Shown: positions 7,287 to 61,467, counted from the stretch's first letter. The stretch is DNA of 64,000 nucleotides from Candidatus Peregrinibacteria bacterium (GCA_018658105.1 JABHVW010000012.1:9604-73603); one strand, 5' to 3'. A program made the numbers and translations. Notes: generated from the sequence alone by a model not told the origin.

Positions 7287-7298
7287 GGTTGAAGGGGA

Positions 7299-10655: not shown

Positions 10656-10666
10656 GTATAAATTAT

Positions 10667-13996: not shown

Positions 13997-14012
13997 GCGC
14001 GCGTGGATTAGT

Positions 14013-14082
14013 GCCCTATATGTAAGGGCATTCAATAATTAAATATGATACTTTTGTTTATTTCAACCCTTACATATAGGGC
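14013..14082 (-). promoter_or_regulatory. 5' UTR structure: 17-nt arms (14013-14029 and 14066-14082) that are near-perfect reverse complements, enclosing a 36-nt loop
   Basis: GCCCTATATGTAAGGGC at 14013-14029 and ACCCTTACATATAGGGC at 14066-14082. In the minus-strand RNA they give 16 Watson-Crick pairs plus one G-U. The element lies between a predicted promoter and the ATG at 13996. Confidence 0.55.
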
Positions 14083-17481: not shown

Positions 17482-17539
17482 ACGCTTAGCTTAACACAAA
17501 AGTTTTTATATTTTTAGATTCTGTGATTTAATTTATTTG

Positions 17540-20335: not shown

Positions 20336-23300
20336 TTAGGCTTCTTTGTTTGCTCTGTCATTCCACCAAACTAGTAGTGGGCTTGCCACGAAGATTGATG
20401 AGTATGTTCCTGCAACGATACCAACCGCTAGTGCGAGGACGAACATTCGTATGCTTTCTGCACCGAAGATTAGTAATGCGAGGATTGTTATCAGGGTTGA
20501 TATAGAAGTGTTGATAGATCGAGCCATAGTTTGGTTTAGAGCGTCGTTTGCGTTCTTAGCTAGGCTGTCTTCGGATTTTCTGTAACGAAGGTTTTCTCGT
20601 ACACGGTCGAACACTACGATAGTGTCGTGAACAGAGAATCCCATGATAGTTAGAAGTGCTGTTACGAAGAGGGCATCGATTTCTACACCGGCGAATTGGC
20701 CGAGAAGAACGAATACACCTGTTACGATTAGGATATCGTGAACTAGTGCAGCGATTGCCGCCATTCCAAAGCGCCATTTACTTACTTCTTTAGGAATCTT
20801 TCTAAAGGCGAAAGCGATGTATAGAACTATCATGAACAGAGTTATGACAAGAGCTGTGAAGGCTTTCTTTTTAAGAGTTGAGCCTAGAGTTGGACCGACA
20901 GTGCTGAAACGAACTTCTTCGAAGCTAGTTGTGTTTTCGCTGAATTTTGCAATGAGTGAGTCATGTTCTGATTCAGATACATGTTTTAGTCTGATGATGA
21001 ATGTTCCTTGATCGGTTGAGACGATTTGTGGAATTCCAAATTCAGATTGCATTTCTTCTTCAATTTCAAGGACTTTGTTTGCAAGAGTTTCGCTTGTAAC
21101 TTCTTCTTCAGTTTCAAACTGAATTTCCATTAGAGTTCCACCTGTAAAGTCGATTCCGAAATTTAGTCCAAAGATTGCAATACTTAAGATTGAAATTGAA
21201 ACTAATACTCCTGAAATTGTTGCCCAGATTTTACTATTTTTAATGATAGGTAGTTTCTTTGTGTGTTTTCTAGGTTTACCATATAGAGCAAGTTTTTCAC
21301 CTAGTTTTGTTTCTGCTGAAAGTTGTAAGAAAGTGTAAGTAAGTGTGATTGCACTGAACATTGAAACAAGAATACCGAGTGCGAGATTAAGCGCGAAACC
21401 ACGGATGATTGATGTTCCAAAGTAGAATAGAATCGCACAAGTGATTAATGATGAGAAATTTGAATCACGAATTGAATCCCATGCGCGTTCAAATCCATCA
21501 TGAATTGATGTTTTAAGATCTTTTCCATCTGCAAGTTCTTCTTTCATGCGTTCGAAAATCAGTACATTTGCATCAACGGCCATACCAATAGATAGAATTA
21601 CACCGGCGATACCTGCCAAAGTCATTGTGATTTGGCTTGAGAGTACGAATGTTGCGAAGAATAGAACCACACAGGCAAGAATGAAAGACACAATTTTTTC
21701 CCCTCCGGAATCCTTATTTTTGAGAATTATATGGACTAAGTAAACGAAGAGAGCCAAACCTGCTAGAAGAGCCAGGGATGTGCCAACACTTGCTTTGATG
21801 AAGAATAATAAGATTACTGCGTAAATTGTAAGTGCGAGGTCTGCAAATAGACCAGGTAATCGGTAGAACACCGCCATGTAAATGGCTAGGATGATAAGCC
21901 CGATAATTCCGGCTTTTGTACTTAGTTCAAGTGCTTCTGCACCTAGCGTTGCACTGATTGTATATTGTCCAGCGAGTTCAATTGGGGCTGGAATTGCACC
22001 TGTATTAAGATCACGAGCTAATTCTTGTGCTTCTTCAAGGCTGAAGCTACCTGTAATTTGTGCTTCACCACCTGCAATTGCAGTGTTAACTGTTGGTGCA
22101 GAAATTACATCTCCACCTACGAAAATTGCGATTCGTTTACCAATATTTCTTCCTGTTAATTCTTCGAATAATGTAGCGCCTTCTTTAGTGAAGCTGATTG
22201 CTACGTAAGGTTCGAATCCACTTTGGCTGTATGCAACGTCTGCATGTTTGAAGTGTTCACCTGTTAGGAATGAGTCTTCTGCCCAAGTATCTGGAGTTGT
22301 GTCGAAGATTACTCTGTTAACTGCATAGCTTTCAACGGTTTCACTTGATGAGCTAGCTTCAGTTTTTGTGTAATTTTTGATGATGTGAAATCCAAATTCT
22401 GTTTCAACTAGATCAGAATAGACTCCTAATTCTAGGTTAAATGCTACATCTTCAAATGCTTGAGTCATTACTCCGCGTTTGAAAAGCCCAAGGTCTCCGC
22501 CTTTAGATGCGCTACCTGCGTCGTCTGAATATTCACTAACTAATTCGTCCATTGCTGCGCCATCAACTAATCTGTCGCGAAGTTCTTGTGCTAGTGTTTC
22601 AGCTTCTTCTTTTGTTCTTGTTGCCTCACTTCTTTCTGCACCTTCATATGCAATTAAAATGTGATTAGCGCCTACTTCTTCCTCTACAACTGTTTCTACC
22701 ACTTCACTTGATTTATCTACAATTTGAAAAACACCCATTCCACGTGATGCAGTTATGTTTCCTTCTCCAGTCACAGTATAGCCAGCATCTACTTCAGCTG
22801 GATTTGTGATTGCGCCGATTGCTTTACCTTTAATTGCTGCTTGAATATCTTCTGAGTAACTACTTATGCTCATTAGTTCAGCTTCGTAACTGCTGCTGAT
22901 TTTAGATTCATACTTTTCTTCAGCTGCATCTGCTAGTTCAATGAAATCACCACCAGCAATAAGGTCGATGTAAAAACTTTGTGATTCAGTTTGAGCGACT
23001 TCAAGGGCTTCAAGGTCATTTGGATTTGGATTTTCTTCTCTAAATTCAAGCTGAATTGTTTTACCAACAGTATTTTTGGCTTCGTCAATGTCAGATATTC
23101 CAGCTAGCTCCACAATAATGTGATGCTCGTCTGCAATGCTAGAGCTGTAAATGCTTGGTTCTGAAACACCTAAACTATCTACACGACGGCGAATAACCTC
23201 TTGAACACCTTCAACGATTTGAAGCTGATCAATTTCTGGTACATCACTTAGATCGATCTTGTAATCGAGCTGAGTTCCTCCACTAAGGTCTAGACCTAAT

Positions 23301-23395
23301 TTTAGGTCAGTAGCGGTGTCTATATAAGCTAAACCGCCGGCTGCAAGTAAAATAAATAATACTTTTGCAGTTAAGAATTTCTGAAATCTTTTCAT
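20336..23395 (-). CDS. secDF: Fused protein-export membrane protein SecDF with a parvulin-type PPIase insertion in the SecD periplasmic head
   Basis: SecD start LKLGLDLSGGTQL, SecD base IAIFVGGDVISAPTVNTAIAGGEAQITGSFSLEEAQELA, SecF start GIDFTGGTLMEIQF, and 12 TM-like segments. Residues about 241-342 match PrsA/PpiC (NHILI...EYSDDAGSASKGGDLGLF...FGFHIIK). Confidence 0.9.
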   Translation of the reverse strand: MKRFQKFLTAKVLFILLAAGGLAYIDTATDLKLGLDLSGGTQLDYKIDLSDVPEIDQLQIVEGVQEVIRRRVDSLGVSEPSIYSSSIADEHHIIVELAGISDIDEAKNTVGKTIQLEFREENPNPNDLEALEVAQTESQSFYIDLIAGGDFIELADAAEEKYESKISSSYEAELMSISSYSEDIQAAIKGKAIGAITNPAEVDAGYTVTGEGNITASRGMGVFQIVDKSSEVVETVVEEEVGANHILIAYEGAERSEATRTKEEAETLAQELRDRLVDGAAMDELVSEYSDDAGSASKGGDLGLFKRGVMTQAFEDVAFNLELGVYSDLVETEFGFHIIKNYTKTEASSSSETVESYAVNRVIFDTTPDTWAEDSFLTGEHFKHADVAYSQSGFEPYVAISFTKEGATLFEELTGRNIGKRIAIFVGGDVISAPTVNTAIAGGEAQITGSFSLEEAQELARDLNTGAIPAPIELAGQYTISATLGAEALELSTKAGIIGLIILAIYMAVFYRLPGLFADLALTIYAVILLFFIKASVGTSLALLAGLALFVYLVHIILKNKDSGGEKIVSFILACVVLFFATFVLSSQITMTLAGIAGVILSIGMAVDANVLIFERMKEELADGKDLKTSIHDGFERAWDSIRDSNFSSLITCAILFYFGTSIIRGFALNLALGILVSMFSAITLTYTFLQLSAETKLGEKLALYGKPRKHTKKLPIIKNSKIWATISGVLVSISILSIAIFGLNFGIDFTGGTLMEIQFETEEEVTSETLANKVLEIEEEMQSEFGIPQIVSTDQGTFIIRLKHVSESEHDSLIAKFSENTTSFEEVRFSTVGPTLGSTLKKKAFTALVITLFMIVLYIAFAFRKIPKEVSKWRFGMAAIAALVHDILIVTGVFVLLGQFAGVEIDALFVTALLTIMGFSVHDTIVVFDRVRENLRYRKSEDSLAKNANDALNQTMARSINTSISTLITILALLIFGAESIRMFVLALAVGIVAGTYSSIFVASPLLVWWNDRANKEA

Positions 23396-42888: not shown

Positions 42889-45231
42889 ATGGCAGACGAT
42901 TCTACGCCCGGAAACGATCAAAGCACTGCAGTAAGCCAAAATCAGGCTGCTTCGTCTGTGCTTGTTCCGAACCCTGAAATTGCTCAAGAGGCTGTTAAAG
43001 CGCCTGTTAAGGGTGCTCCTGAGACAAAAGCTCAAGTGAAAGAGGAAGTTGCAGCGCAAAAAGAGGCTCAACCAAAAACAACAGTTTCGAAGGGTGTTCA
43101 GAAAAAAGCTGCGGCAGCGGCTAAGCAAATAGATGCTGCAAAGAAAAAAGAAGAAGTTGAGCAAAAGAAGAAAATTATGGAGGCTGAAGGGCTTTTCCAA
43201 GAAGGTATTGCCTCAATTAGAGATTTAATTGCACCTTCTTCATTTGAAATAAATTATGATCATGTAAAGATTGATGGGCTGTATTCTCAGACTTTCTTTG
43301 TTTATACCTATCCACGTTATATTGATACGAACTGGCTTTCGCCAATTGTGAATTATGACGTAACTATGGACGTTTCTCAGTTTATTTATCCGATTGATTC
43401 GGTGCAAATAATGAAAACTCTTAAGACGAAAGTTGCTCAACTGAGTTCGTCTATAAGGATTAGTTCAGAAAAGGGTAATGTTCGAAATCCGGCGCTTGAA
43501 ACTGCGCTTGAAGATGCTGAGCAATTACGTACTGAGCTACAACGAGGTCAGGAGAAATTCTTTCAATTTGGAATGTATTTTACTCTTTATTCAGAGGATG
43601 AAGATGAATTAAGACGTGCATCAAAGGAGCTTCAGAGCTTGCTTGCTGGTAAACTTGTTTTGACTAAACGTGCAGATTTACAGATGGAGCGTGGCTTTAA
43701 TTCTACAATTCCAATTTGTCTTGATGAACTTGAGACGGATCGAAATATGAATACTTCGCCGCTTTCTACGACTTTCCCGTTTATTTCTTCGGAGCTAACT
43801 TCGAATGATGGGGTGCTTTATGGTTTGAATCGACACAATGAATCATTGATTATTTTTGATAGGTTCTCGCTTGAAAATGCTAATAGTGTTGTATTTGCGA
43901 AATCTGGTGCTGGTAAATCTTATGCTGTGAAACTTGAAATTTTGCGGTCATTAATGATGGATACGGATGTGATTGTGATTGATCCTGAAAATGAATATAA
44001 ACCGCTTTGTGACACTGTTGGTGGTACTTATTTGAATGTTTCTTTGAATTCAGATAGACGTATTAATCCCTTTGATTTGCCGACTCCACTCGAGGGTGAA
44101 GAGGTTAAGCCAGGTGATTTGCTGCGTAGTAGTATTATTAATCTGACGGGTTTGATGCGATTGATGCTTGGTGAGATTTCTCCTCAAGAAGAAGGTATTT
44201 TAGATAAAGCTTTGATTGATACATATTCAACAAAAGGTGTGACAATGGACACGGTTGATCCTTCACAATTTAAGGTGCCGACCATGGAGGATTTTTACAG
44301 TGTGCTTTCATCGATGGATGGAGCTGAAAATATGGCGCAGAGGATTGCAAAATATGTAACTGGTACTTATGCTGGTGTGTTTAATCAAGAAACGAATGTG
44401 ACGCTCGATACTGGTTTGATGGTGTTTTCTGTTCGTGATCTTGAAGATGAGCTGCGGCCGATTGCGATGTATATTATTTTGAATTACATCTGGAATCGAG
44501 TTCGTTCGACTTTGAAAAAACGTATGCTTGTAATTGATGAGGCGTGGTCTTTGATGCAACATGAAGATAGTGCGAAGTTCTTATTTGGACTTGTGAAGAG
44601 GGCGCGTAAATATTATTTGGGTGTGGCGACAATTACTCAAGATGTTGAGGATTTTGTGCGCAGTCCATATGGTAAGCCGATTATTACGAATTCGTCGATG
44701 CAGCTGCTTTTGAAGCAGTCGCCTTCGGCAATTGAGCCGCTGACTAAGATTTTTAATCTGACAGAAGGGGAGAAGTATATGCTTCTGAATTCTGGGGTTG
44801 GGCAAGGGCTTTTCTTTGCTGGACTGAAACACGTTGCTATTCAAATTATTGCTTCATTTAGTGAAGATAAAATTGTTACTACAAATCCTGAAGAGCTTTT
44901 GGCTCAAAGTAATGCGACGGCTGAATATGAAGAGACTGCTGCTGAAGAAGCAGCGCCTGCTGCACCGGCAGTTGCCGATGCTCCTGTTGAAGCCACTCCT
45001 GAACCTGAAACTGAAGTGCCTGTGGCTGAAACTGTGGCGCCAGTTGCACCTGAAGCGGCTGTAGTGGCTGAGCCGGCTGTTCAAGAAATTCCTATTCAAG
45101 AAGCTACACCTGCTGTTGCAGAGGTGCCGATTGCGCCGGCTACACCAGTTGCTGAAGCTGTTGTGACTCCAGAAGAGCAAGCATTAGCAGAAGGGTTTGA
45201 GGATAATTCTGGGGATGTGCTTGGGGCTTAA
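42889..45231 (+). CDS. VirB4/TraC/TrbE-like type IV secretion or conjugation ATPase with low-complexity N- and C-terminal tails
   Basis: Walker A VFAKSGAGKSYAV, Walker B MLVIDEAWSLM, and ATITQDVEDF. The N-terminal 100 aa are K/A/E/Q-rich and the C-terminal 120 aa are A/P/E/V-rich (APAAPAVADAPVEATPEPE...). Confidence 0.72.
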   Translation: MADDSTPGNDQSTAVSQNQAASSVLVPNPEIAQEAVKAPVKGAPETKAQVKEEVAAQKEAQPKTTVSKGVQKKAAAAAKQIDAAKKKEEVEQKKKIMEAEGLFQEGIASIRDLIAPSSFEINYDHVKIDGLYSQTFFVYTYPRYIDTNWLSPIVNYDVTMDVSQFIYPIDSVQIMKTLKTKVAQLSSSIRISSEKGNVRNPALETALEDAEQLRTELQRGQEKFFQFGMYFTLYSEDEDELRRASKELQSLLAGKLVLTKRADLQMERGFNSTIPICLDELETDRNMNTSPLSTTFPFISSELTSNDGVLYGLNRHNESLIIFDRFSLENANSVVFAKSGAGKSYAVKLEILRSLMMDTDVIVIDPENEYKPLCDTVGGTYLNVSLNSDRRINPFDLPTPLEGEEVKPGDLLRSSIINLTGLMRLMLGEISPQEEGILDKALIDTYSTKGVTMDTVDPSQFKVPTMEDFYSVLSSMDGAENMAQRIAKYVTGTYAGVFNQETNVTLDTGLMVFSVRDLEDELRPIAMYIILNYIWNRVRSTLKKRMLVIDEAWSLMQHEDSAKFLFGLVKRARKYYLGVATITQDVEDFVRSPYGKPIITNSSMQLLLKQSPSAIEPLTKIFNLTEGEKYMLLNSGVGQGLFFAGLKHVAIQIIASFSEDKIVTTNPEELLAQSNATAEYEETAAEEAAPAAPAVADAPVEATPEPETEVPVAETVAPVAPEAAVVAEPAVQEIPIQEATPAVAEVPIAPATPVAEAVVTPEEQALAEGFEDNSGDVLGA

Positions 45232-45683: not shown

Positions 45684-46178
45684 ATGCGAGAAAATGATTT
45701 TTTACAGGAGAGGTTGGATGTTCTGCTTAAGAATAATTTTGCAGATGTTGAGCGGCCGAATGAGATTAAAATTGCTTTTGGGCGCCGCGCTAAGCGGCGT
45801 TTTGGTTCTATTAAAATGGATAGGCCGACTTTGCTGAAGAAAAACCCGGCTAGTATTATTACTATTAATGGTTTGTTTCGTGATGAGAAAATTCCTGCAC
45901 AAATTATTGAAGCCACTATTGCACATGAGCTTTGCCATTATGCACATGGATTTTCTTCGCCTTTGCCAAAGAAATATGAAAAGCCACATCAGGGTGGTGT
46001 GATAAAGCGTGAAATGAAAAAGCGTGATTTAGTTTTTTTGTATGACTATGAGCAGCTTTGGACGAAGCAAAATTGGGTGAAAATTCTGGGTGAATCTTTC
46101 CCTCAAACTAGAAGAGTGAGGCGCCGTAAGCAGCCAAAAACATTATCTCAACTCTTGGCTCAGCTTTTGAAACCATAG
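45684..46178 (+). CDS. SprT-like/HExxH zinc metalloprotease-domain protein
   Basis: IAHELCHYAHG motif preceded by FGRRAKRRFGSIKM...IITINGLF, and a basic C-terminal tail. Confidence 0.55.
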   Translation: MRENDFLQERLDVLLKNNFADVERPNEIKIAFGRRAKRRFGSIKMDRPTLLKKNPASIITINGLFRDEKIPAQIIEATIAHELCHYAHGFSSPLPKKYEKPHQGGVIKREMKKRDLVFLYDYEQLWTKQNWVKILGESFPQTRRVRRRKQPKTLSQLLAQLLKP

Positions 46179-47777
46179 TTCGTCTTCGTCGCCATCAATC
46201 ATAATATCTGGAGTAACTCCGACTTCTTGTATTGAGACTCTTTCTGAATTGAGCCACTCGGCAATCGTTAATTTAATGCCTGAGCCGTCCCAATAGTTAA
46301 TGATTTGTTGAGCTGTGCCTTTGCCATAGGTTTGGTGGCCGATTACTGTTGCGTTACCAGTTGCTTGCAAAGTTGATGTAACAATTTCAGATGCAGATGC
46401 GCTGAGGCCATCTACAAAAATGTATAAAGGATAGTCTTGGTAAGGGCCGAAGTCACCGTTGTATAGAGTTTCTTCTGTTCCGCCGTAATCAAAAGTCATC
46501 AGTGGCTCAAGGTGGTCAAGGAATAGGCCAGAAATATAATTTGCGGCGTTTACATAACCTCCAACATTTCCACGAAAATCTAGAACGATGGCTTTTGGCC
46601 TTTTAACTTCTGATTCAAGTTCTGCAAAAATTGCATCGAGTCTTTTTGGAGTTTGGCTCGCGAAAGTGTTGACGTCTATGTACCAAACGTTGTTTTCAAT
46701 TATTTCTCCAGTTTCAGATTTTGAAACTAATGCTTTACGTGTGATGTTGAAATCTAGCTCTTTGTGATCTCTTAAAATTGTGATTTGTACGTCTGTCCCT
46801 TCTGCTCCACGAATTCTTGAAACAACAGTTTCAATTTGCATTTCCCCAACAAAAATTCCATCTACATGAGTAATGATGTCACCTTTTTCTACGCCCAGTT
46901 CTTTAGCGGGTGAGCCTTCTACAAAATCTGTGATGATTACCTCAAGATTTTCTGGATCTTGATCTACATATACGCCAATGCCTTGGTAGTCGCCTTCAAT
47001 ATTTCCTGTAAAAATTTGATTTTCATCTTCGCTGAAATATGTGGTGTATTTGTCGTCGAGGCTTAGAAGCATGCCTTTGATTGCTGCTTGAAAGAGAGCA
47101 TCTGGGTCAATTCTTGTGCCGCTTGGGAGATATAAATCGTTGTTAATTCGATTCCATATATCAGCGAAAATACCTGACTTGTGAAAAAGCTCTTCTTCGC
47201 TCGCGAGTTCAAGATTGTTGTCTTGTTCGAATTGGAAAATCAGATCTGCAAATTCACCTCTTGTAATGGAGACGTTGGGTCTGAATTTCTGGGCGGTGTT
47301 CTCACTTAAAATTCCGTTATCGACTGCTCTTTTAATGATGTCATATAAAGGGTAGTCGGCTTTTACGTCGCTAAATAGGTCGTATCGGTCTTGGCTTCTA
47401 ACGATTTGGCTGCCCATTCCATAGGCTTTTAGTAAAATGTTTAGCGCATCAACTCGGCGAATTGCTCTTTCTGCCTCAAATGTTTCTGAATTTAATAGGT
47501 TGTTTTCTTTTGCTAATGCGGCATATGGGGCAAACCAAGCGTCTGCTGGGACGTCATTATAGTTGGATTTTACGTCATTTTCGCCGTTTTCGCCTGCAAC
47601 TCTAAAGGTGATTTTGAAGAGTGCGGCTCTATTTATGAGCTTTTCTTCGTGGAATTCCTTGCTGGTGTCTATTGCACCAACTAATTCTAAATATTCAATT
47701 GCAGACTGAAAATCGCTTGCTGCTGCGAATGGAATGCTTATAAGTGAGATTATTAGGCCTAAAAGTAGTTTTTTCAT
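46143..47777 (-). CDS. C-terminal processing peptidase (S41, Ctp/Tsp-like) with N-terminal SLH-like repeats and a PDZ domain
   Basis: Signal peptide MKKLLLGLIISLISIPFAAAS, SLH-like NYNDVPADAWFAPYAALAKENNLL, PDZ-like GDIITHVDG, and S41 core RGNVGGY...DGLSASASEI...YGKGTAQ. Confidence 0.85.
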   Translation of the reverse strand: MKKLLLGLIISLISIPFAAASDFQSAIEYLELVGAIDTSKEFHEEKLINRAALFKITFRVAGENGENDVKSNYNDVPADAWFAPYAALAKENNLLNSETFEAERAIRRVDALNILLKAYGMGSQIVRSQDRYDLFSDVKADYPLYDIIKRAVDNGILSENTAQKFRPNVSITRGEFADLIFQFEQDNNLELASEEELFHKSGIFADIWNRINNDLYLPSGTRIDPDALFQAAIKGMLLSLDDKYTTYFSEDENQIFTGNIEGDYQGIGVYVDQDPENLEVIITDFVEGSPAKELGVEKGDIITHVDGIFVGEMQIETVVSRIRGAEGTDVQITILRDHKELDFNITRKALVSKSETGEIIENNVWYIDVNTFASQTPKRLDAIFAELESEVKRPKAIVLDFRGNVGGYVNAANYISGLFLDHLEPLMTFDYGGTEETLYNGDFGPYQDYPLYIFVDGLSASASEIVTSTLQATGNATVIGHQTYGKGTAQQIINYWDGSGIKLTIAEWLNSERVSIQEVGVTPDIMIDGDEDELWFQKLSQELR

Positions 47778-47887: not shown

Positions 47888-50140
47888 ATGAAAGTACCAG
47901 TTCTAGTAAATATGTTGGTTGTGGCGGTGATAGCGCTGACTGTGGGAATGTTCAGTCTGATTAGCTATGGTGAGCCTGATTTTAGTGTGATGAATGATTT
48001 TGAGCTTTCAGGTGAAATGGCCTTTGATGAGCTTGTGAAATCAACTTCAACGAGTGTGCTTAGGCAAAACGGAAGAGATTCTGTAGTGCTGATGTCTGGT
48101 GCTGAAGCTGAGCTTCATTTCGATGAGGAAACTGGGAATGTAAATGTTGATTTGCAGTCTGGTGCAGTGCTTTTTGCAACTTTGGCTGGTGACTTTACAG
48201 TAAGTGTTACTAGTGATTTTGCGAGAGTTGATTCACGAGGAAATATGGCATATGTGGAGCTTGAGGAATCTTCAATGCAAGTTTACGCATTGGATCATCC
48301 TTCGGAAATTACTTTCACACTTGAAGATGAAGATTTGAATACACTTTCTGTGCCAGCGTTGCATAGGGTTAAAGTGTCATCTGCGAAAGTTACAGATACA
48401 GTTGGCCGTTTGCGTTTAGCGAAATTGTCTAAGGAGTTTCCTGCAATTGATTTAAAAGATGAAGATTATTCAGTTGATTTGTTAACTCAGATCTCTGCAA
48501 TTGAGGCTTCATATAGTGAATCTTCGATTGAGCTTTTGAATGCTTTCCAAGTAAATAGTGATTTTGGTCCTGATAGGGATGGAGTTGCTGGAGGTTTAAC
48601 TGATGTGCTTTCTACATTTGAGGAGACGGTGACTGTTTTGCCACATGCTGAAGAGCGATTGCTTTCGGATTCTGGTGAAGATGCGCTGACTTATGCGGTG
48701 AGTCATTATTTATATGGTGAAGAGCGCGAAGGTGATTTGTGGCTTGCGGAATGGGAAATGGGTGAATATGCAGATGAGGAGATTGAAGAGCTTTATGCGT
48801 CTTTATTCTTTGTTTTGCCTGGTGATCAGCTTTATTCGTTGAAGTCGGCCGTTTCTAAAAAATTATATTCTGGTGATGCACTTTTGGATTCGCTCCGAAG
48901 GCAATATCAAGAAATTGAAAGTCTTTTAGATAGATCATCTTTGCTTGCGGCTGAAGAAGCTTTTGCGAGTTATAAGATGGAATTTCAAAATGCTTTGAGA
49001 AGTGGAGTATTTGATGAGGCGCGTTATTTGCCGGAAATTAATCGTGAATATGTTTTACTTGAGCTTTTATTGAGAAGTCATGCAGTTTTTTATTCAGTTG
49101 ATGATGTTGTGCTTTTATCTGATTTGGAGGCGAAGATTCTTTCTCTTTCAGGTAGTACAAAAGATCTAGATGAAGAAAGACAGACATTCATTCAAAGTAA
49201 GCTAAGATTTTTAGCTAATCTTTTTGAATTCGTAATTGATAAGAAAGTTTCTCCTGCAGATGCTGAGGGGCTTGCGAATGATCTCTTGATTGCTGCTCAA
49301 TCTTATTTGGGTGGAATATCTTCTGAAATTGCAGTTTATGATTACTTTGTTTCTGAACTGGATTTATATGAGCTTTCAATTGATTTCATGAGTTCACTTG
49401 AATTTTATTCTTACGCTTCGTTTGAAGAAGGTTTGGCTGCGTATTCTGAAAAAGTTGAGGATGTTGATGAGCTAAATGAATATTTGCAAGAAATTCGAGT
49501 TGGTGTTGATGTGAATCCTATTGTTGAGATTACTTTGGAGGATGCGATTATCGAGGTAGGGCAAGCGATGGTTTACAATCAAATTCAATATGCAGATTTG
49601 GATTCTCTGGGAGATGCTGAATTGCGATTGTTTGATGTGATTGGTGGGCGAACTGCCGGATATAAATTTGAAGCGAGATACGATAGAATTACAGGTCTAT
49701 TATATGACTTGGTTGTTGAAGAAGATTTGCGGTTTTCAACTGGAATTGCCATTGAATCTGCACATGATGTAATTGAGCAAGCTTTGGCTGAGCCTGAAGA
49801 AGAAGAAGAGGTTTTGGAGGATGAAGTTACTGATGAGCCTTCGCTTAGAGATGGCGTTGCATATGCTCATGCTGAATCTCAATTTGAGGCAGCAGGTTTC
49901 GATTTAGACTCTTTGACTTTGGAATTGCTTGCTGAGGATTCATTCTCATTTGAAGGTGAATTAGGCGCAAGTCGTTTGCCAGTTTCTGGTGTATATGACG
50001 GTGAAACTGAAAAAGTGAGCCAGATATTTTGGGAGTTTGATGATGGCTTACAAAGTTTACCTAGTACAGACTTATCAAATCTGAATACTGCGATTATGGC
50101 GATGAAGGCTGCATTAGAAGCTGCAGAGCTTGAGGGGTAA
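47888..50140 (+). CDS. Membrane-anchored acidic protein with a FecR-like beta-sandwich followed by a long helical region (hypothetical)
   Basis: N-terminal TM segment. VLMSGAEAELHFDEETGNVNVDLQSGAVLFATLAGDFTVSVTSDFARVDSRGNMAYVEL resembles the FecR domain pattern. Confidence 0.55.
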   Translation: MKVPVLVNMLVVAVIALTVGMFSLISYGEPDFSVMNDFELSGEMAFDELVKSTSTSVLRQNGRDSVVLMSGAEAELHFDEETGNVNVDLQSGAVLFATLAGDFTVSVTSDFARVDSRGNMAYVELEESSMQVYALDHPSEITFTLEDEDLNTLSVPALHRVKVSSAKVTDTVGRLRLAKLSKEFPAIDLKDEDYSVDLLTQISAIEASYSESSIELLNAFQVNSDFGPDRDGVAGGLTDVLSTFEETVTVLPHAEERLLSDSGEDALTYAVSHYLYGEEREGDLWLAEWEMGEYADEEIEELYASLFFVLPGDQLYSLKSAVSKKLYSGDALLDSLRRQYQEIESLLDRSSLLAAEEAFASYKMEFQNALRSGVFDEARYLPEINREYVLLELLLRSHAVFYSVDDVVLLSDLEAKILSLSGSTKDLDEERQTFIQSKLRFLANLFEFVIDKKVSPADAEGLANDLLIAAQSYLGGISSEIAVYDYFVSELDLYELSIDFMSSLEFYSYASFEEGLAAYSEKVEDVDELNEYLQEIRVGVDVNPIVEITLEDAIIEVGQAMVYNQIQYADLDSLGDAELRLFDVIGGRTAGYKFEARYDRITGLLYDLVVEEDLRFSTGIAIESAHDVIEQALAEPEEEEEVLEDEVTDEPSLRDGVAYAHAESQFEAAGFDLDSLTLELLAEDSFSFEGELGASRLPVSGVYDGETEKVSQIFWEFDDGLQSLPSTDLSNLNTAIMAMKAALEAAELEG

Positions 50141-50728: not shown

Positions 50729-53556
<2,828 letters not shown>

Positions 53557-53676
53557 TTAGTTGTTTGTCTAATAGGCTATAGATTTTTGATCTGTTTTTC
53601 AATTGTTTTTTCATGTCTGGCAAGTATTCAGGAAAAATTCAGCTTTTTTTCAGGTGGATTTGTTTATTGTTTGTTT

Positions 53677-54237
53677 ATGAAAAAAATATATCTATTACCG
53701 GTCTTAAGCGCTGCTTGTGTGCAGAGTATTTATGATGGGCCTGAGCAAGGTTATTTCGATACTGGTTTTGTTTCTTACTTGGCTGCTGAGTGTCACGATA
53801 AGGTAATGCAGCTTGAGCCGAATTTTTTGGTGGTCAGGCAAAATGCAAATGTGTCGCCAGTTTTGCGTGGTAGTGACGATAAAGTTTTCTTTACAGATGG
53901 CTTTATTGTGCCGCAGGAGCATCCGGGTGCTTTTTTGCAGCATACTGGAGCTTATTTGAGTTCGGCAGGTCAAAATCAGTATTGTTTCGGCAAGATTGAT
54001 CCTTTGAGTACTTCTAGAAGTTTTGAAATTGAGTTCAACTTGAGTAAGGAAGCCTGTGGTGATTTGGATATTTTTGAAGAGGAAAAACGCTTAAAAGTAT
54101 TCATTTATCATGATGATGGGGGTGAATGTACGGCACTTTATTCTAGGGGAAATGCTAAGGCAGCGGTCTTTAATTATGAAATATGGCTTAATTTAGAGGA
54201 TTTATCGTCTTCGACAGTTAAGAGGGATTCGGGCTGA
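53677..54237 (+). CDS. Putative lipoprotein (hypothetical)
   Basis: The internal start MKKIYLLPVLSAAC has a lipobox-like LSAAC. The track ORF from 53500 would overlap the divergent gene. Confidence 0.5.
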   Translation: MKKIYLLPVLSAACVQSIYDGPEQGYFDTGFVSYLAAECHDKVMQLEPNFLVVRQNANVSPVLRGSDDKVFFTDGFIVPQEHPGAFLQHTGAYLSSAGQNQYCFGKIDPLSTSRSFEIEFNLSKEACGDLDIFEEEKRLKVFIYHDDGGECTALYSRGNAKAAVFNYEIWLNLEDLSSSTVKRDSG

Positions 54238-54242
54238 TAATC

Positions 54243-54271
54243 TTGAATATTAACCTGCAATATGGTATAAT
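54243..54271 (+). promoter_or_regulatory. Sigma70-like promoter TTGAAT-17-TGgTATAAT
   Basis: Read directly. It supports the ATG at 54297 rather than the TTG at 54243 as the start of the next gene. Confidence 0.5.
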
Positions 54272-54296
54272 TATTAGAAATGTAAAGTTATTAAAT

Positions 54297-54593
54297 ATGG
54301 ATTACCTCGTCGAATTAGCAGAAGAGCAAGATATATTACTTGAGATTGGTGATTTTCAAGATTTGAAGCATTTAATTGAGATTTTGAATAATGTTTTTGA
54401 ATCTGTTGAATATAGACTTGAAAAGGTTGAGGGTAAAAAAGATACATATTTATTTTGTGAAGATCCTGATGGTGATGATGAATATGAGTGTGGAATGATA
54501 ATTAAGATGGGAAAAAAAGCTTATGCGTTTTCACCTGTTGTTCATGAATTAGTGCTTGGGGCCTACCAAAAATACCTTGATGAAACGGAGTAA
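54297..54593 (+). CDS. Small acidic hypothetical protein
   Basis: ATG at 54297 (MDYLVELAEEQ...), 98 aa, no recognised motif. Confidence 0.45.
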   Translation: MDYLVELAEEQDILLEIGDFQDLKHLIEILNNVFESVEYRLEKVEGKKDTYLFCEDPDGDDEYECGMIIKMGKKAYAFSPVVHELVLGAYQKYLDETE

Positions 54594-57114: not shown

Positions 57115-57882
57115 ATGTGGATTGATACTCATTGCCATCCTTTCGCGAAGCCTTTCAATAAAGATCGGGCTGAAATGATTCAGCGTGCTCGTGATGCTGG
57201 TGTAGATAAAATGATTTGTGTGGGTTTTAATCCATGGGCAAATAGAGAAACTTTGAAGCTTCTTGAAAAGTATGACTTTATGTATGGAACTTTGGGTGTG
57301 CACCCTTGTGATTGTGATGAGTTAACTGATGAGGAAATTGTTTGGATTCGTGAGGCGGCTTTGGCGAGGCTAGGGCGAATTGTTGGGATTGGTGAGACTG
57401 GTTTGGACTATCATCATATGAGCCATTCAAAAGAGGCACAGCAGGAGGCTTTTCGTAAACATATTCGTTTGGCAAAGGAGCTCAATTTAGTTTGCATTGT
57501 GCATTCGAGGGATGCTGCTGATGATACTTTGCGGATCTTGTTGGAAGAAAAAGCTGAAAAGGTTGTTTTTCATTGTTATAGTTATGGGCTTGAATTTGCT
57601 AAACAGGTTTGGGCTGAGGGCTTCTATACTTCATTTAGTGGAGTTGTTACTTATCCGCAGGCTGCCGATGTTCAGGAGGCGGCGAAGCATGCGCCGGCAG
57701 ATTTGATCTTGATTGAAACTGATTGCCCATATTTGGCGCCACAGTCAATAAGGGGTAAGCGAAATGAAATCTCGGGTGTAGTTGAGGTGGGGGAGAAGGT
57801 GGCGGAGCTTCGTGCTATGCAGCCTCAGCAACTTGCCACTCAGCTAAGTAGCAATTTCCAGACCTGCTTTATGAGCTCTTAA
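57115..57882 (+). CDS. tatD: TatD-family metal-dependent hydrolase/DNase
   Basis: MWIDTHCHP start, GETGLDY, IVHSRDA and ETDCPYLAP. Confidence 0.9.
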   Translation: MWIDTHCHPFAKPFNKDRAEMIQRARDAGVDKMICVGFNPWANRETLKLLEKYDFMYGTLGVHPCDCDELTDEEIVWIREAALARLGRIVGIGETGLDYHHMSHSKEAQQEAFRKHIRLAKELNLVCIVHSRDAADDTLRILLEEKAEKVVFHCYSYGLEFAKQVWAEGFYTSFSGVVTYPQAADVQEAAKHAPADLILIETDCPYLAPQSIRGKRNEISGVVEVGEKVAELRAMQPQQLATQLSSNFQTCFMSS

Positions 57883-59619
57883 TCGTTTTCTAGTTGCTGT
57901 GTTTAAGGCTACTATTTCAGGATGACTAGTGTCGCGATGTAGAATAGCGTTAACTTCAAGCCCTCTTTCGAGATCATAGTACCAATGGCTCTTTGGGGAG
58001 TTCATGTCGTTACTTGCTCTAAATTCATCTTCTAAAATTATTTGAATTTCTACTTTTGTTCCAGGATTTTCTGCTGTCCCTGTATAACCGCATATTTTCA
58101 TTGCCCTGTATTTGGCTGATTTTCTGTTTTTACCATTTCCTTTGAAGTTATTTTTGACCATAAATTCACCAGGATTTAGTTCGTCTCTGGTTTTCCCATC
58201 TGCGTGTGCCATTCCTAGCTTTTGTCCTGTTTCTATACCAATCTCTCTTAACTCTTGAATTTTCTTTGGATCCAAATCTTCATAATTTAGATCCCACATT
58301 ATAAGAGTACCAGCGATATAGTCTGGAATGTCTTCTAAGTCGTAGCTTGGGTAAATTAGTAGCTTTGTTTCTACAGAGTCTTCTGTTTTAAATCTAAGGT
58401 CTACAAAATGTACTCGCTGCTCGCTATCGCTCCCCTTTATTTTACGAAGGCTCACTCGTATATCATTTCCATCTGTAGTAGCTTCTTTTACAATTCTTTT
58501 CTCTGAATCTCTGAATATGGTGATAACCTCTGTGGCTTCAGTTAAGATTTCTTCAGCAAGGATTCTATCAATTTTCTCACAAGCAGATTCTGTTTTTTGG
58601 AATAACTCATTTTTTAAAATTAGATAAAATAAACCACTTAAATGTGCAACCGCTTTCATGGTTGCTCTGTCTGCGATGCTGCCCCCTTCGGATGCATGTA
58701 GTGCGTAATTTAACATTGCATATAGGCTGTTACATCGAAAGATTATGGATCCGTCTACTGAACCTTCTTGTGTATCTGTATCATCACCTTCTGTTGAGTC
58801 GGTTAATCTAATCAATCTTTTATTTGCTGTAGAGAGCTTCTCAAGGTGTTTGAAATAGTAACTCCAGGCAAGTTGTCTACTTGATACAAGTAGATTTTGA
58901 TCAAGATCAGTCAGACCAAGTTTTTCTGCTAAGATGGTATCTTTTTCTTCGGGGGTTTTTCTTTGTCCATTTATTTCTTCTTTTGCTAGGGCCACTGCAT
59001 CGCGGATTTCTTTTGCAGAAAATATGGTGTCGCCAAGTCCTATAACTTTTTGTTTGTCAAAGCGTTCAATGGCTTCTCTTAACAGGTAAATGAGAGTATT
59101 CTTAACTGTATCTTTAGCTTTATTTCTTGTTTCATCATGTACCGTATGAGTCTCTTCGATAATTGCCTTTACTAAAGCTTCAGATAAAGCATCAAGTTGT
59201 TCGTAAACACGTTCTTCGTTGATTACAAAAGGGAAGAAACCAAGTACATTTCTGAATTTTATAGGGGTTAATTCAGTGACATAATCTAGATCATCTGCAA
59301 TCAATTGTTTTTCAGCATCAACTGCGATTTTCGTTGGCATTCTTTTGCCAACGAAATGAGCGTAAATTGGATTATCTCTGATCCCAGCGGGGATTTCGAA
59401 TGTTTCACTTTTTAAACAATGGTCAATTGCGAATAATACTGCTTTGATCGCTAAATCTATCTCTTCTTTGCTTGTAGCTGTTTCGACATCTTGTTGAAAT
59501 CGAGATAGTTCCGGATGAGGAATATCTTTTACGTTTGAAGCGGCAAGTTGTCCAATTGTGTTTTCACGTAGTACGCGATTACCATCTGGGTCAACTGCTG
59601 AAATACGTAGAGGTTTCAT
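57844..59619 (-). CDS. Protein with a C-terminal RelA/SpoT-like (RSH, small-alarmone-synthetase-type) nucleotidyltransferase domain and an N-terminal region of about 400 aa of unknown function
   Basis: Ordered motifs against B. subtilis SAS (YjbM): LRFKTEDSVETKL vs GRVKPVASILEKA; DYIAGTLIM vs DIAGLRIM; KYRAMKI vs GYRSYHL; KVEIQI...SHWYYD vs LVEIQIRT...HSLNYKY. It lies 35 nt downstream of radA on the same strand. Confidence 0.65.
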   Translation of the reverse strand: MKPLRISAVDPDGNRVLRENTIGQLAASNVKDIPHPELSRFQQDVETATSKEEIDLAIKAVLFAIDHCLKSETFEIPAGIRDNPIYAHFVGKRMPTKIAVDAEKQLIADDLDYVTELTPIKFRNVLGFFPFVINEERVYEQLDALSEALVKAIIEETHTVHDETRNKAKDTVKNTLIYLLREAIERFDKQKVIGLGDTIFSAKEIRDAVALAKEEINGQRKTPEEKDTILAEKLGLTDLDQNLLVSSRQLAWSYYFKHLEKLSTANKRLIRLTDSTEGDDTDTQEGSVDGSIIFRCNSLYAMLNYALHASEGGSIADRATMKAVAHLSGLFYLILKNELFQKTESACEKIDRILAEEILTEATEVITIFRDSEKRIVKEATTDGNDIRVSLRKIKGSDSEQRVHFVDLRFKTEDSVETKLLIYPSYDLEDIPDYIAGTLIMWDLNYEDLDPKKIQELREIGIETGQKLGMAHADGKTRDELNPGEFMVKNNFKGNGKNRKSAKYRAMKICGYTGTAENPGTKVEIQIILEDEFRASNDMNSPKSHWYYDLERGLEVNAILHRDTSHPEIVALNTATRKRLRAHKAGLEIAT

Positions 59620-59654
59620 AAAACAGGGTAAGGTTCAAATTTACCCATAATGCA

Positions 59655-60950
59655 CTAATTTGTCAAGTTTTTGATCTGGTTAAGTAGGCATTTATTTAGT
59701 CCGAGTTTCTTTGCAGTTTTGTCTCTTTCTTTCTCTCTTCGAACTGGACGGATTTCACCTGTTAAGCCAACTTCACCGTAAGCACATGTGTTTTTGGGCA
59801 ATGGCTTTTTAGCAAAACTGGAGGAAATTGCAAGGCAAATGGCAAGGTCTGCGGCGGGGTCACGTAGGCGAAGTCCACCGACAATATTGATATATACATC
59901 GTGTTCGTGGAGTTTAATTTTGCTGTGTTTTTGCATAACAGCAATTAATAATTCGAGACGATTTTTGTCGAAGCCACTCGCGGCTCTTTTAGGGTAGCCA
60001 AAGTGAGTGTGGCTTACTAAAGCCTGAACTTCTATTACAAGAGGTCGATTGCCTTCCATGGTAATTGTGAGGCAACTGCCTATTGAGTTTTCTGGTCTGG
60101 ATTCAATTAATTTTTGGCCGGGATTTTTAAGTTCAATTAAACCTTTCTCTTGCATCTCGAAGATCCCAATTTCGCTGATGCTTCCAAAGCGATTTTTTAA
60201 TGCCCGAAGCATTCGGAGCTCGTGGTCGCGTTCACCTTCAATTATTAAAACTGTGTCTACTAGATGTTCAAGGAGTTTTGGGCCTGCGATGTTACCGTCT
60301 TTAGTTACGTGGCCGATTAAAAGGGTAGGTATGCCGAGGGTTTTGATCGTATTCATTATTGCCTCGGTAACGTACCTTACTTGGCTTAAACTGCCAGCTA
60401 CGCCTGAGATTTCTTGTGAGGCGATTACCTGGATGGAATCCAAAACTAAAAATTCTGGTTTTTCTTTGTTGATAGTTTCAATAATATTTTCGAGATTTGT
60501 TTCGTATAAGATTTCTATATTTTCTTGAGTGACACCAAGCCTTTTTGCTCTGCTAGAAATTTGCTCAACAGATTCTTCGCCACTGATGTAGATAACTTTT
60601 TCTTTCTGTTTTGCTATGCGGTCAACAATTTGCAAGGTGAGGGTTGATTTGCCTATTCCTGGCTCACCGGAAAGTAGAATTAAGCTACCTTCAACAATTC
60701 CGCCACCGAGTACTTGGTCGAACTCTTCAATATTTGTTTTGCAACGTTCTTTTGTTTTTGGGATTTCACTTATTTTTTTTGGTTTTTCGCGTGTTCGAGG
60801 ACGAACAACACTAGAAATTTTTGCTGCTTTACCAACATTGATTACGTCTTCTACAAAGCTGTTCCAACTTTCACAAGATGGGCATTTGCCTACCCATTTA
60901 CTTGTTTGGAATTCACATTTTTGGCAGAGGAAAACTGTTTTTAATTTCAT
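59655..60950 (-). CDS. radA: DNA repair protein RadA/Sms
   Basis: Start at MKLKTVFLCQKCEFQTSKWVGKCPSCESWNSF (zinc ribbon); the track ORF begins 15 codons earlier. Walker A GEPGIGKST, the KNRFG motif, and a Lon-like C-terminal domain. Confidence 0.92.
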   Translation of the reverse strand: MKLKTVFLCQKCEFQTSKWVGKCPSCESWNSFVEDVINVGKAAKISSVVRPRTREKPKKISEIPKTKERCKTNIEEFDQVLGGGIVEGSLILLSGEPGIGKSTLTLQIVDRIAKQKEKVIYISGEESVEQISSRAKRLGVTQENIEILYETNLENIIETINKEKPEFLVLDSIQVIASQEISGVAGSLSQVRYVTEAIMNTIKTLGIPTLLIGHVTKDGNIAGPKLLEHLVDTVLIIEGERDHELRMLRALKNRFGSISEIGIFEMQEKGLIELKNPGQKLIESRPENSIGSCLTITMEGNRPLVIEVQALVSHTHFGYPKRAASGFDKNRLELLIAVMQKHSKIKLHEHDVYINIVGGLRLRDPAADLAICLAISSSFAKKPLPKNTCAYGEVGLTGEIRPVRREKERDKTAKKLGLNKCLLNQIKNLTN

Positions 60951-60988
60951 GTGTATATTGTAGCGTTTATGATGTTGGTTTGCACCCA

Positions 60989-61017
60989 TTGACATCTCGA
61001 ATTTTATTGTGTAATAT
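60989..61017 (+). promoter_or_regulatory. Sigma70-like promoter TTGACA-17-TGtgTAATAT
   Basis: TTGACA at 60989-60994 and TAATAT at 61012-61017, upstream of the ATG at 61033. Confidence 0.5.
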
Positions 61018-61032
61018 TCGCTGGATTTAAAA

Positions 61033-61467
61033 ATGTTTATGTATACTCCTCTGTTGTCACCATCGATTGGTAAGATTCGAATAGTTGTTGAATCTGTTTC
61101 AAGAGTGAGGGAGGTATTAAGTGATGTTACTGATGTATTTGCTGGTATGGTACATAGGATTCTGTGTGTTTCAACGTGTTCAGTTTTATCTTTTGTAGTT
61201 AAGTTTGGAGATAGATTGACTTCTGTTACGAAGGATGATCTTAAAAAAGTTGATACTCCAATTTCTATGCATGCTAGGGCTCAATCTATGCTTCCTGAAA
61301 TTCCTGTTATTCAGAGAGGTGTTTTCCCTCCAATTGATTTAACTGCTTTAGCTCCTCTAACTTCTATAGCTACTGATGTTATTGAGGAAGATGCTCCTGA
61401 GGAACCTAAAGTTATTGAGTATTTTCTTAGACTTGTTCCTGATCTTGAGGAGGATAATTCTAATTAG
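61033..61467 (+). CDS. Hypothetical protein
   Basis: 144-aa ORF behind a good promoter, with no recognised motif. Confidence 0.4.
   Translation: MFMYTPLLSPSIGKIRIVVESVSRVREVLSDVTDVFAGMVHRILCVSTCSVLSFVVKFGDRLTSVTKDDLKKVDTPISMHARAQSMLPEIPVIQRGVFPPIDLTALAPLTSIATDVIEEDAPEEPKVIEYFLRLVPDLEEDNSN

Follow-up and report, generated by a model that had tools for sequence, protein, structure and literature searches.

A divergent RelA/SpoT-like domain in a protein encoded beside radA in a Candidatus Peregrinibacteria bacterium

Which protein is encoded directly downstream of radA in a Candidatus Peregrinibacteria bacterium, and what might it do? The question is raised by a 64-kb stretch of DNA from this organism, called the window here, and by one gene within it, whose 591-aa product is designated X. 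X is identical to the database protein P0001, 'hypothetical protein HOH67_03095 [Candidatus Peregrinibacteria bacterium]', which comes from a metagenome-assembled genome (111-kb contig). A first-pass annotation of this DNA had proposed that X ends in a RelA/SpoT-type nucleotidyltransferase (NTase) domain, preceded by a helical region without recognizable relatives. The list of open reading frames (ORFs) agrees with that annotation on the coordinates, strand and length of X and on the 35-nt gap that separates the radA stop from the X start on the same strand. The motifs cited in it also lie exactly where they were placed: LRFKTEDSVETKL at 408-420 (R409, K411, S415, K419), DYIAGTLIM at 433-441, KYRAMKI at 503-509, VEIQI at 523-527 (E524), and HWYY at 545-548. 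The comparison of sequence profiles described below shows fold-level homology of the C-terminal domain to the synthetases of RelA/SpoT homologues (RSH). On balance, X is probably the founding example of an undescribed and very divergent RSH synthetase subfamily, an active pyrophosphokinase with a gating N-terminal domain.

The RelA/SpoT-type domain and the X family

An exhaustive phmmer search of 1.84 billion cluster representatives identified 29 proteins at E<1e-3, and a family alignment of 28 sequences (520-772 aa) was made, with the outlier P0027 (1,728 aa) left out. The C-terminal region of this family (residues 380-591) was compared by hhalign with a reference of 17 genuine RelA/SpoT synthetase domains. 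The reference comprised E. coli RelA, long RSH proteins and small 'GTP pyrophosphokinase family' proteins, the latter two groups recovered by tblastn from phage and plasmid collections. The match has a probability of 95.8% (P=6.6e-9, score 61.3) over 110 columns, and it pairs K411, S415, K419, D433, Y504, E524/Q526 and H545/Y548 one to one with their Rel counterparts. Reversed profiles score 16, and 100 column shuffles give a mean of 12.9 (standard deviation 2.7, maximum 25.7). Shuffling blocks of eight columns keeps local motifs and destroys their order; 100 such shuffles give a mean of 22.6 (standard deviation 3.4, maximum 35.9). The N-terminal region of the X family reaches a score of 23 and a probability of 2.6% against the same reference. 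The match stands at 95.7% when the window protein is removed, at 95.1% against long RSH proteins only, and at 85.9% against small alarmone synthetases (SAS) only. Judged by these alignments, the motif pattern in X is beyond chance.

The residues expected to bind substrates and metal are among the best conserved in the family alignment, from which all counts are taken. After M1, only K411, D433, G520 and E524 are invariant, and Q526, Y548, G465, G484, G511 and P130 are conserved in at least 90% of the sequences. K411 (Rel K243), the Mg2+ Asp D433 and the catalytic Glu E524 occur in 28/28, and both Q526 (Rel Q325) and Y548, the Tyr of H-W-x-Y-K, in 27/28. S415 (Rel S247) is Ser in 21 members and Ala in five, K419 (Rel K251) is Lys in 22 and Arg in six, and the G-loop residue Y504 (Rel Y308) is Phe in 12 and Tyr in 11 of the 28. 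H545 is kept in 17/28. At position 508, a Lys stands where Rel has the His of GYxSxH (25 Lys and two Arg). The donor-site motif R-x-K-x3-S-x3-K is present in X, and its leading Arg (R409 in X) is found in 12/28 of the family. In the DxxGxR motif, D433 is accompanied by G437 in 19/28 and by Arg at the Rel R269 position (438) in 16/28; X itself has T438. In the crystal structure of FaRel2, the phosphates of ATP are held by K66, S70 and K74 and the Mg2+ by D90, while the acceptor base stacks on Y128 of the G-loop (PMC11782079). The alignment shows that X-family residues matching those roles are retained across the whole family. The phosphate-binding, metal-binding and base-stacking residues of X thus appear to be under strong constraint, and the predicted active site is apparently intact. 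Mean pairwise identity is 30% in the catalytic domain.

A structural model is consistent with this assignment. AlphaFold without an alignment gave an unusable prediction (pLDDT, the predicted local confidence, 33.7). AlphaFold2 with the 28-sequence multiple sequence alignment (MSA) gave a mean pLDDT of 81.6 and a predicted TM-score (pTM) of 0.83. Residues 1-19 and 92-117 are of low confidence, values from residue 120 are mostly 80-94, and those in the C-terminal half are mostly >90. The order of the C-terminal elements is b1(402-410)-a(413-422)-b2(435-441)-a(451-467)-b3(485-491)-loop-b4(506-514)-b5(519-529)-a-a. K411 ends beta-1, S415 and K419 lie on the next helix, D433 precedes beta-2, Y504 is on the beta3-beta4 loop, and E524 and Q526 are on the last strand. 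As modelled, this order agrees with the topology reported for the SYNTH domain of FaRel2 (PMC11782079). The top Foldseek match in the PDB is to the catalytic domains of S. aureus Rel (7oiw_A, E=0.016, probability 0.90). Other NTases of the polymerase-beta type, namely DNA polymerase beta (Pol beta), MenT3 and TglT, are lower in the list, with E values of 2-8 that are about 100 times weaker than that of Rel. In a viral library, a phage protein named 'RelA/SpoT' ranks third (E=0.05), and the best matches are large multidomain phage proteins. The Foldseek result for the model agrees with the profile match and would be unconvincing on its own. Foldseek was a check proposed in the first-pass annotation, and it bears the proposal out in rank, since Rel catalytic domains come first in the PDB, but not in strength, E=0.016 being weak. 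The proposed C-terminal domain is otherwise upheld by the hhalign match, by that rank and by the invariance of K411, D433 and E524.

The N-terminal domain is of a different character. Residues ~20-358 are helical in the model (helices H21-H358), with one short hairpin, and the domain has no match in Pfam, PDB sequences or PHROGs. This agrees with the earlier description of a helical region lacking recognizable relatives, now set at about 360 residues. Within the protein, conservation is lowest in this domain (20-22% mean pairwise identity), where P130 alone comes close to invariance and no catalytic-type residues are conserved. The possibility that it is a degenerate HD hydrolase domain, and X accordingly a decayed long Rel, was considered and rejected (hhalign 0.1%, no conserved His/Asp). 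The high pTM suggests that the N-terminal domain packs against the catalytic domain, and a regulatory or sensor role would suit it. In most members, the N-terminal and C-terminal domains alike are acidic (pI, the isoelectric point, ~5). In P0005, P0007, P0010, P0014, P0003 and P0013, the C-terminus is extended by tails of 20-60 residues that are extremely rich in Lys and Arg, for example KKPSRKRKLKKKRRKGQKRSR, and these basic tails may be nucleic-acid tethers. The tail of X is only mildly basic.

Members of the X family share 23-39% identity with X over the stretches matched by phmmer and 17-26% over the family alignment. Where a source is named, it is Peregrinibacteria, 'Patescibacteria group', Peribacteria or Gracilibacteria. 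A word-index homologue search with the X protein and the family alignment as queries returned X alone. A scan of a genome collection with the X protein identified no close relative, and the same scan with a tight subgroup of the family identified two Peribacteria loci. Searches of Pfam, NCBIfam, PADLOC and PDB sequences gave nothing significant for whole X or for either half, nor did searches of these databases and PHROGs with the family profile and every member. The homologues that were recovered indicate that the X family is real, small, fast-diverging and lineage-specific. So far, it has been seen only in Peregrinibacteria/Peribacteria and in Gracilibacteria-type bacteria of the candidate phyla radiation (CPR).

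Genomic setting and transcription of the X gene

The X gene lies between radA and a convergent tatD gene (Table 1). The genomic context was examined in 13 cases, and the upstream side is visible in 12 of these; the remaining contig starts at the X homologue gene. In nine of the 12, radA is directly upstream (the window, L001, L002/L032, L033, L003-5, the P0017 locus, L006-7, L031 and L009). A convergent tatD follows in seven of these nine radA-linked lineages. An unknown 440-aa gene takes its place in the P0017 locus, and the contig of L031 stops short of the downstream gene. In the window, the 3' coding ends of X and tatD share 39 nt (57844-57882). Outside it, the convergent arrangement is kept in L001, L002, L003-5, L006-7, L009 and L033, with overlaps of -1 to 104 nt. 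This tail-to-tail overlap could cause transcriptional interference or antisense effects. Identity to the window genes in the radA-linked loci is 50-68% for radA, 41-67% for tatD, and 22-33%, often over part of the length, for X. X therefore evolves much faster than its neighbors and keeps the same place. The adjacency to radA that the first-pass annotation had pointed to is thus conserved in nine lineages despite divergence of X to about 25% identity. Vertical inheritance of X in the slot radA -> X <- tatD is the best explanation. The listed radA ORF is 15 codons too long at its 5' end, and its true start is probably M16, at 60950; radA homologues are 433-437 aa long and begin with MKLKTV(Y/F)xC, which corresponds to M16 of the window radA.

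Table 1. Positions of X, its domains, its neighbors and its predicted promoter-like element in the window
Feature	Position	Strand	Description	Basis
X coding sequence	57844..59619	minus	ATG start, 591 aa	ORF list
X N-terminal all-alpha domain	58546..59562	minus	residues ~20-358	AlphaFold2 with family MSA
X C-terminal alpha/beta domain	57847..58542	minus	residues ~360-591; RSH SYNTH-like core 400-560	
radA/sms, DNA repair helicase	59655..60995	minus	directly upstream of X	TIGR00416 E=4.2e-160
tatD-family DNase/hydrolase	57115..57882	plus	convergent with X	PF01026 E=7e-80
Sigma-70-type promoter-like element for X	59638..59666	minus	-35 TTGACA 59666-59661, 17-nt spacer, -10 TAAATT 59643-59638	

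In Gracilibacteria (L027 1-11794, L030 8267-21920), the X homologue is located away from radA and is divergent to a gene for a cho/uvrC-like nuclease, a DnaQ-like exonuclease/GIY-YIG/UvrC_M/Cho_C fusion protein. The recG gene lies three genes downstream in L027 and four in L030, and a gene for a 1127-aa UvrD/PD-(D/E)XK helicase-nuclease is found within about 8 kb. The gene convergent to the X homologue encodes a protein of 606 aa that has a hydrophobic segment at its N-terminus and no match in Pfam. The locus looks like a second, independent association with DNA-repair genes, which is suggestive only. The other two contexts that lack radA are short contigs with unrelated neighbors. The unknown neighbors in loci without radA (606 aa in L027, 440 aa in L029) were considered as paralogues of X and rejected; they have no informative Pfam matches. 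The gene neighborhoods, taken together, suggest a possible functional tie of X to DNA repair or recombination.

Co-transcription of X with radA had been thought likely, and the spacer between the two genes makes obligate co-transcription doubtful. A sigma-70-type promoter-like element scoring 10/12 precedes X, and its -35 hexamer sits in the last codons of radA. Random 70-nt segments of the same DNA score at least 10 in 0.8% of cases (P=0.008). An equivalent element scoring 9-11/12 is present in all seven radA-linked loci that were checked. The -35 hexamer lies on the radA stop codon in all seven, in differing reading frames, which argues for a signal at the DNA level over a coding constraint. 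In six of these loci, 18-24 nt separate the end of the -10 box from the start codon. The exception is L001, where the called start is 96 nt from the -10 box; an in-frame ATG 26 codons upstream restores an 18-nt spacing and matches the longer cluster member P0150. Because the element is conserved in all seven loci, X is probably transcribed from its own predicted promoter. A scan found no intrinsic terminator between radA and X, so that read-through from radA is possible. The spacer has a weak 6-bp hairpin between the -10 box and the start (-6.7 kcal/mol in a 68-nt stretch), which is not conserved in relatives. A search for riboswitches and other known RNAs in the spacer and the rest of the window found only four tRNAs. 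No Shine-Dalgarno sequence is recognizable before X (59619), gyrB (50729), prmC (54916), prfA (55749), tatD (57115), gyrA (42218), priA (17481) or secDF (23395). In several of these genes, a TAAT/TTAA-like box lies 9-13 nt ahead of the ATG, suggesting that mRNAs of this organism are leaderless or have very short leaders.

The rest of the window has features of its own. Three consecutive giant surface proteins (1647, 1118 and 1122 aa; 2343-14035, minus strand) combine S-layer-homology (SLH) domains with repeats of the Ig-like, HYR and TSP3 types. Another SLH/fn3 protein and an SLH-bearing S41 peptidase are encoded nearby (17537-19720, plus; 46143-47777, minus), and the giant surface proteins and SLH genes form a cell-envelope gene cluster. 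One 1019-aa ORF (20336-23395, minus) fuses SecD/SecF with a PPIC-type peptidyl-prolyl isomerase domain. A TraG/VirB4-like P-loop ATPase of 780 aa is encoded at 42889-45231 (plus), and a 750-aa ORF without a Pfam match at 47888-50140 (plus). For the ORFs at 52621-53556 (minus), 53500-54593 (plus) and 61033-61467 (plus), located in the gyrB-prmC interval and upstream of radA, no family match was informative; a 311-aa ORF among them has only a weak N-formylglutamate amidohydrolase match (E=0.005). No canonical RSH is encoded in the window, and no diadenylate cyclase was found among the larger window ORFs scanned; a window of 64 kb says little about the genome in either case.

A proposed activity and its alternatives

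In the proposed mechanism, X would be an active Mg2+-dependent pyrophosphokinase, with ATP donating its beta,gamma-pyrophosphate to the 3'-OH of an acceptor that stacks on Y504. A purine nucleotide would be the likeliest acceptor, giving an alarmone-like nucleotide as the product. A purine is the most economical guess; the aromatic residue at 504 is kept, and K500, S501 and K508 replace the acceptor-side signature of Rel. These conserved residues would take over the phosphate contacts of PK..GYxSxH, and the changed acceptor side may leave room for a different product. The fast-evolving N-terminal domain would gate the synthetase activity. Transcription of X would start from the promoter that overlaps the radA stop codon, perhaps supplemented by read-through from radA.

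Several observations weigh against this interpretation. No HMM-versus-sequence method (HMM, hidden Markov model) reaches significance for X. PF04607 (RelA_SpoT), the profile that the first-pass annotation had named as a check, is absent from X even at E<=10. The best of the 28 family members reaches it at E=0.076, which is not significant, and our own RelA/SpoT HMM matches X at E=0.26. With the X sequence alone, hhalign gives a probability of only 21%, which is why annotation pipelines miss X and which places the reading of the first-pass annotation at the edge of what can be detected. The 7oiw_A match is weak (TM-scores 0.18/0.29), as the full-length 591-aa model was searched and not the domain alone, and that model rests on a shallow MSA. 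The adenine-stacking arginines are only partly kept (position 409 in 12/28, position 438 in 16/28), the G and H of GYxSxH are lost with only the G-loop aromatic at 504 remaining, and the R-T of ExQxRT is replaced by a hydrophobic residue and Pro. With several Rel signature residues lost, the donor or acceptor could differ from ATP or GTP. On the genomic side, radA is missing from three of the 12 visible contexts. The wider neighborhood (aro genes, prfA-prmC, gyrB and tatD) is also collinear, and the adjacency to radA may therefore be inherited gene order only.

The losses in the active site would also fit a degenerate RSH fold, a pseudoenzyme serving as a nucleotide-binding or structural module, or an NTase with another chemistry such as the nucleoside monophosphate transfer of MenT/TglT. 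Loss or variation affects Rel R241, R269, the G/H of GYxSxH and the R-T of ExQxRT, PF04607 recognizes no member significantly, and Pol beta, MenT3 and TglT do appear in the Foldseek list. We consider this the least probable of the alternatives, and a very unlikely one. With overall identity at 18-30%, the invariance of K411, D433 and E524 and the presence of Q526 in 27/28 mark an active site that has been maintained. Classical NTases carry G[SG]...DxD. X does not have that arrangement; like RSH enzymes, it combines a K-x3-S-x3-K helix with one Asp and a Glu-x-Gln placed distally. Rel is moreover the best structural match by about two orders of magnitude in E-value. An intact active site would equally serve a fused toxic SAS (toxSAS) effector with the logic of CapRel, an alternative that the first-pass annotation had raised. 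Its RSH toxin would pyrophosphorylate tRNA 3' ends or make (pp)pApp, and its N-terminal domain would keep the toxin off until a phage or stress trigger binds. Such chemistry is documented (PMC11782079, PMC7229694). The predicted RSH SYNTH fold would support it, as would the best viral Foldseek matches, which are large phage proteins of several domains and include one named RelA/SpoT. The N-terminal domain also evolves faster than the catalytic domain (20-22% versus 30% identity) and far faster than the neighboring genes. This effector seems quite improbable, and the evidence disfavors it on several counts. X occupies a fixed position between core genes in 9/9 radA-linked lineages and not a variable island, no small antitoxin or small alarmone hydrolase (SAH) gene is adjacent, and neither PADLOC nor PHROGs gives a match. 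Proteins of the toxSAS type that target tRNA are basic, whereas the folded domains of X are acidic; X, acidic and encoded in the core genome, does not resemble a toxin that targets nucleic acids. At about 360 aa and at the N-terminus, the extra domain is far larger than the C-terminal pseudo-zinc-finger antitoxin domain (pZFD) of CapRel, which has about 80 aa.

The position next to radA invites another alternative by analogy with DisA, namely that X signals DNA integrity. RadA, and perhaps TatD, would be the partners of X at recombination intermediates or stalled forks. The N-terminal domain would sense RadA or branched or damaged DNA, and the RSH domain would then start or stop producing an alarmone that slows replication or adjusts repair. 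We regard this as unlikely, yet it has observations in its favor. The radA gene is upstream in nine lineages although X retains about 25% identity and radA 50-68%, and the Gracilibacteria gene that is not linked to radA is beside the gene for a cho/uvrC-like nuclease and near recG and the uvrD/PD-(D/E)XK (AddA-like) gene. The convergent tatD belongs to a DNase family, and the strongly basic C-terminal tails of some members suit nucleic-acid binding. A link of (p)ppGpp to replication and repair is also described in reviews (PMC7483579, PMC12880726). On the other side, the argument is guilt by association, and the analogy rests on gene position. X probably has its own promoter, and the neighborhood is collinear, so that the linkage may be historical. 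No DNA-binding domain (helix-hairpin-helix (HhH), OB and the like) is detectable, both domains are acidic, and L028 and L034 have no repair genes beside X. The broader proposition, a private RSH-derived second-messenger synthetase wired to repair and recombination (RadA, TatD, Cho, RecG) in Peregrinibacteria and Gracilibacteria, is improbable in our estimate. If true, it would be a counterpart of the RadA-DisA c-di-AMP checkpoint built on an alarmone-synthetase fold, with a new sensor of about 360 residues and possibly a new nucleotide. The interpretation of X as a divergent, gated RSH pyrophosphokinase is the one carried into the comparison below.

Relation to known systems

The X family would extend the RSH superfamily into poorly understood CPR lineages. 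A 2020 census based on HMMs described 30 SAS, 11 SAH and 13 long-RSH subfamilies and does not mention CPR lineages (PMC7229694). A literature search within the library available found nothing that links RSH or ppGpp with Peregrinibacteria or CPR bacteria, nor any radA-linked RSH. The family escapes HMM-based searches for RSH proteins, and it would add a new architecture in which a large novel N-terminal domain is joined to a SYNTH domain. The active site keeps its phosphate and metal residues and changes the acceptor-side signature, which makes X a candidate for a new substrate or product. The location beside radA, or beside other repair genes where the two are unlinked, provides a testable hypothesis for these so far uncultivable organisms, namely that their nucleotide signaling is tied to DNA repair. 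In a wider sense, motif reading together with profile-profile comparison can recover enzymes annotated as 'hypothetical'.

DisA is a diadenylate cyclase that scans DNA integrity; in Bacillota and Actinomycetota its gene lies downstream of radA. X likewise lies directly downstream of radA and combines helical parts with a catalytic domain of the nucleotide-signaling type in a multidomain protein. The folds are unrelated, however, and the domain order is opposite; no Pfam match to the diadenylate cyclase (PF02457) or HhH domains occurs in any of the 28 family members. The disA gene of M. smegmatis also has a sub-operon promoter, according to a preprint (bioRxiv 10.1101/2022.06.29.498085).

FaRel2, CapRel and Tas1 have the predicted catalytic fold and the donor-site residues in common with X (K66, S70, K74, D90 and Y128 in FaRel2; PMC11782079), and CapRel demonstrates that the fusion of an RSH domain to an autoinhibitory sensor domain is possible. 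X differs from them in being outside a toxin-antitoxin operon, secretion locus or defense island, in a vertically inherited core position. Its folded domains are acidic, the large additional domain stands at the N-terminus and has no relation to pZFD, and PADLOC does not recognize X.

The long RSH proteins Rel, RelA and SpoT include the best structural match to X (S. aureus Rel, 7oiw), and the profile of long RSH proteins only matches at 95.1%. A helical domain precedes SYNTH in them (HD-SYNTH), as it does in X, but that of X is not an HD domain. Matches to PF13328, PF02824 and ACT are absent from X and the 28 family members, and only ~30 residues follow the catalytic core of X. Lacking TGS, ZFD and ACT/RRM, X gives no sign of ribosome-dependent control.

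With the SAS proteins RelQ and RelP (PF04607), X has the order of the motifs in common: K-x3-S-x3-K follows beta-1, the Asp for Mg2+ comes ahead of beta-2, the G-loop between beta3 and beta4 carries an aromatic residue, and the last strand holds E-x-Q, with H..Y next. The domain is about 200 residues long in both, and the SAS-only profile match is 85.9%. There is no significant HMM-versus-sequence match between them, however. In the X family, GYxSxH becomes x-[FY]-x-A-x-K, ExQxRT becomes ExQ-[ILV]-[IVL]-P, and the arginines are partly kept. The family also has its own insert between beta-2 and beta-3 (W/D...PGEF), unlike RelQ and RelP, and X is fused to a helical N-terminal domain of about 360 aa, which no SAS has. 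In summary, X is rated as a new subfamily with a distinct architecture within an enzyme superfamily already known, not as a new kind of system.

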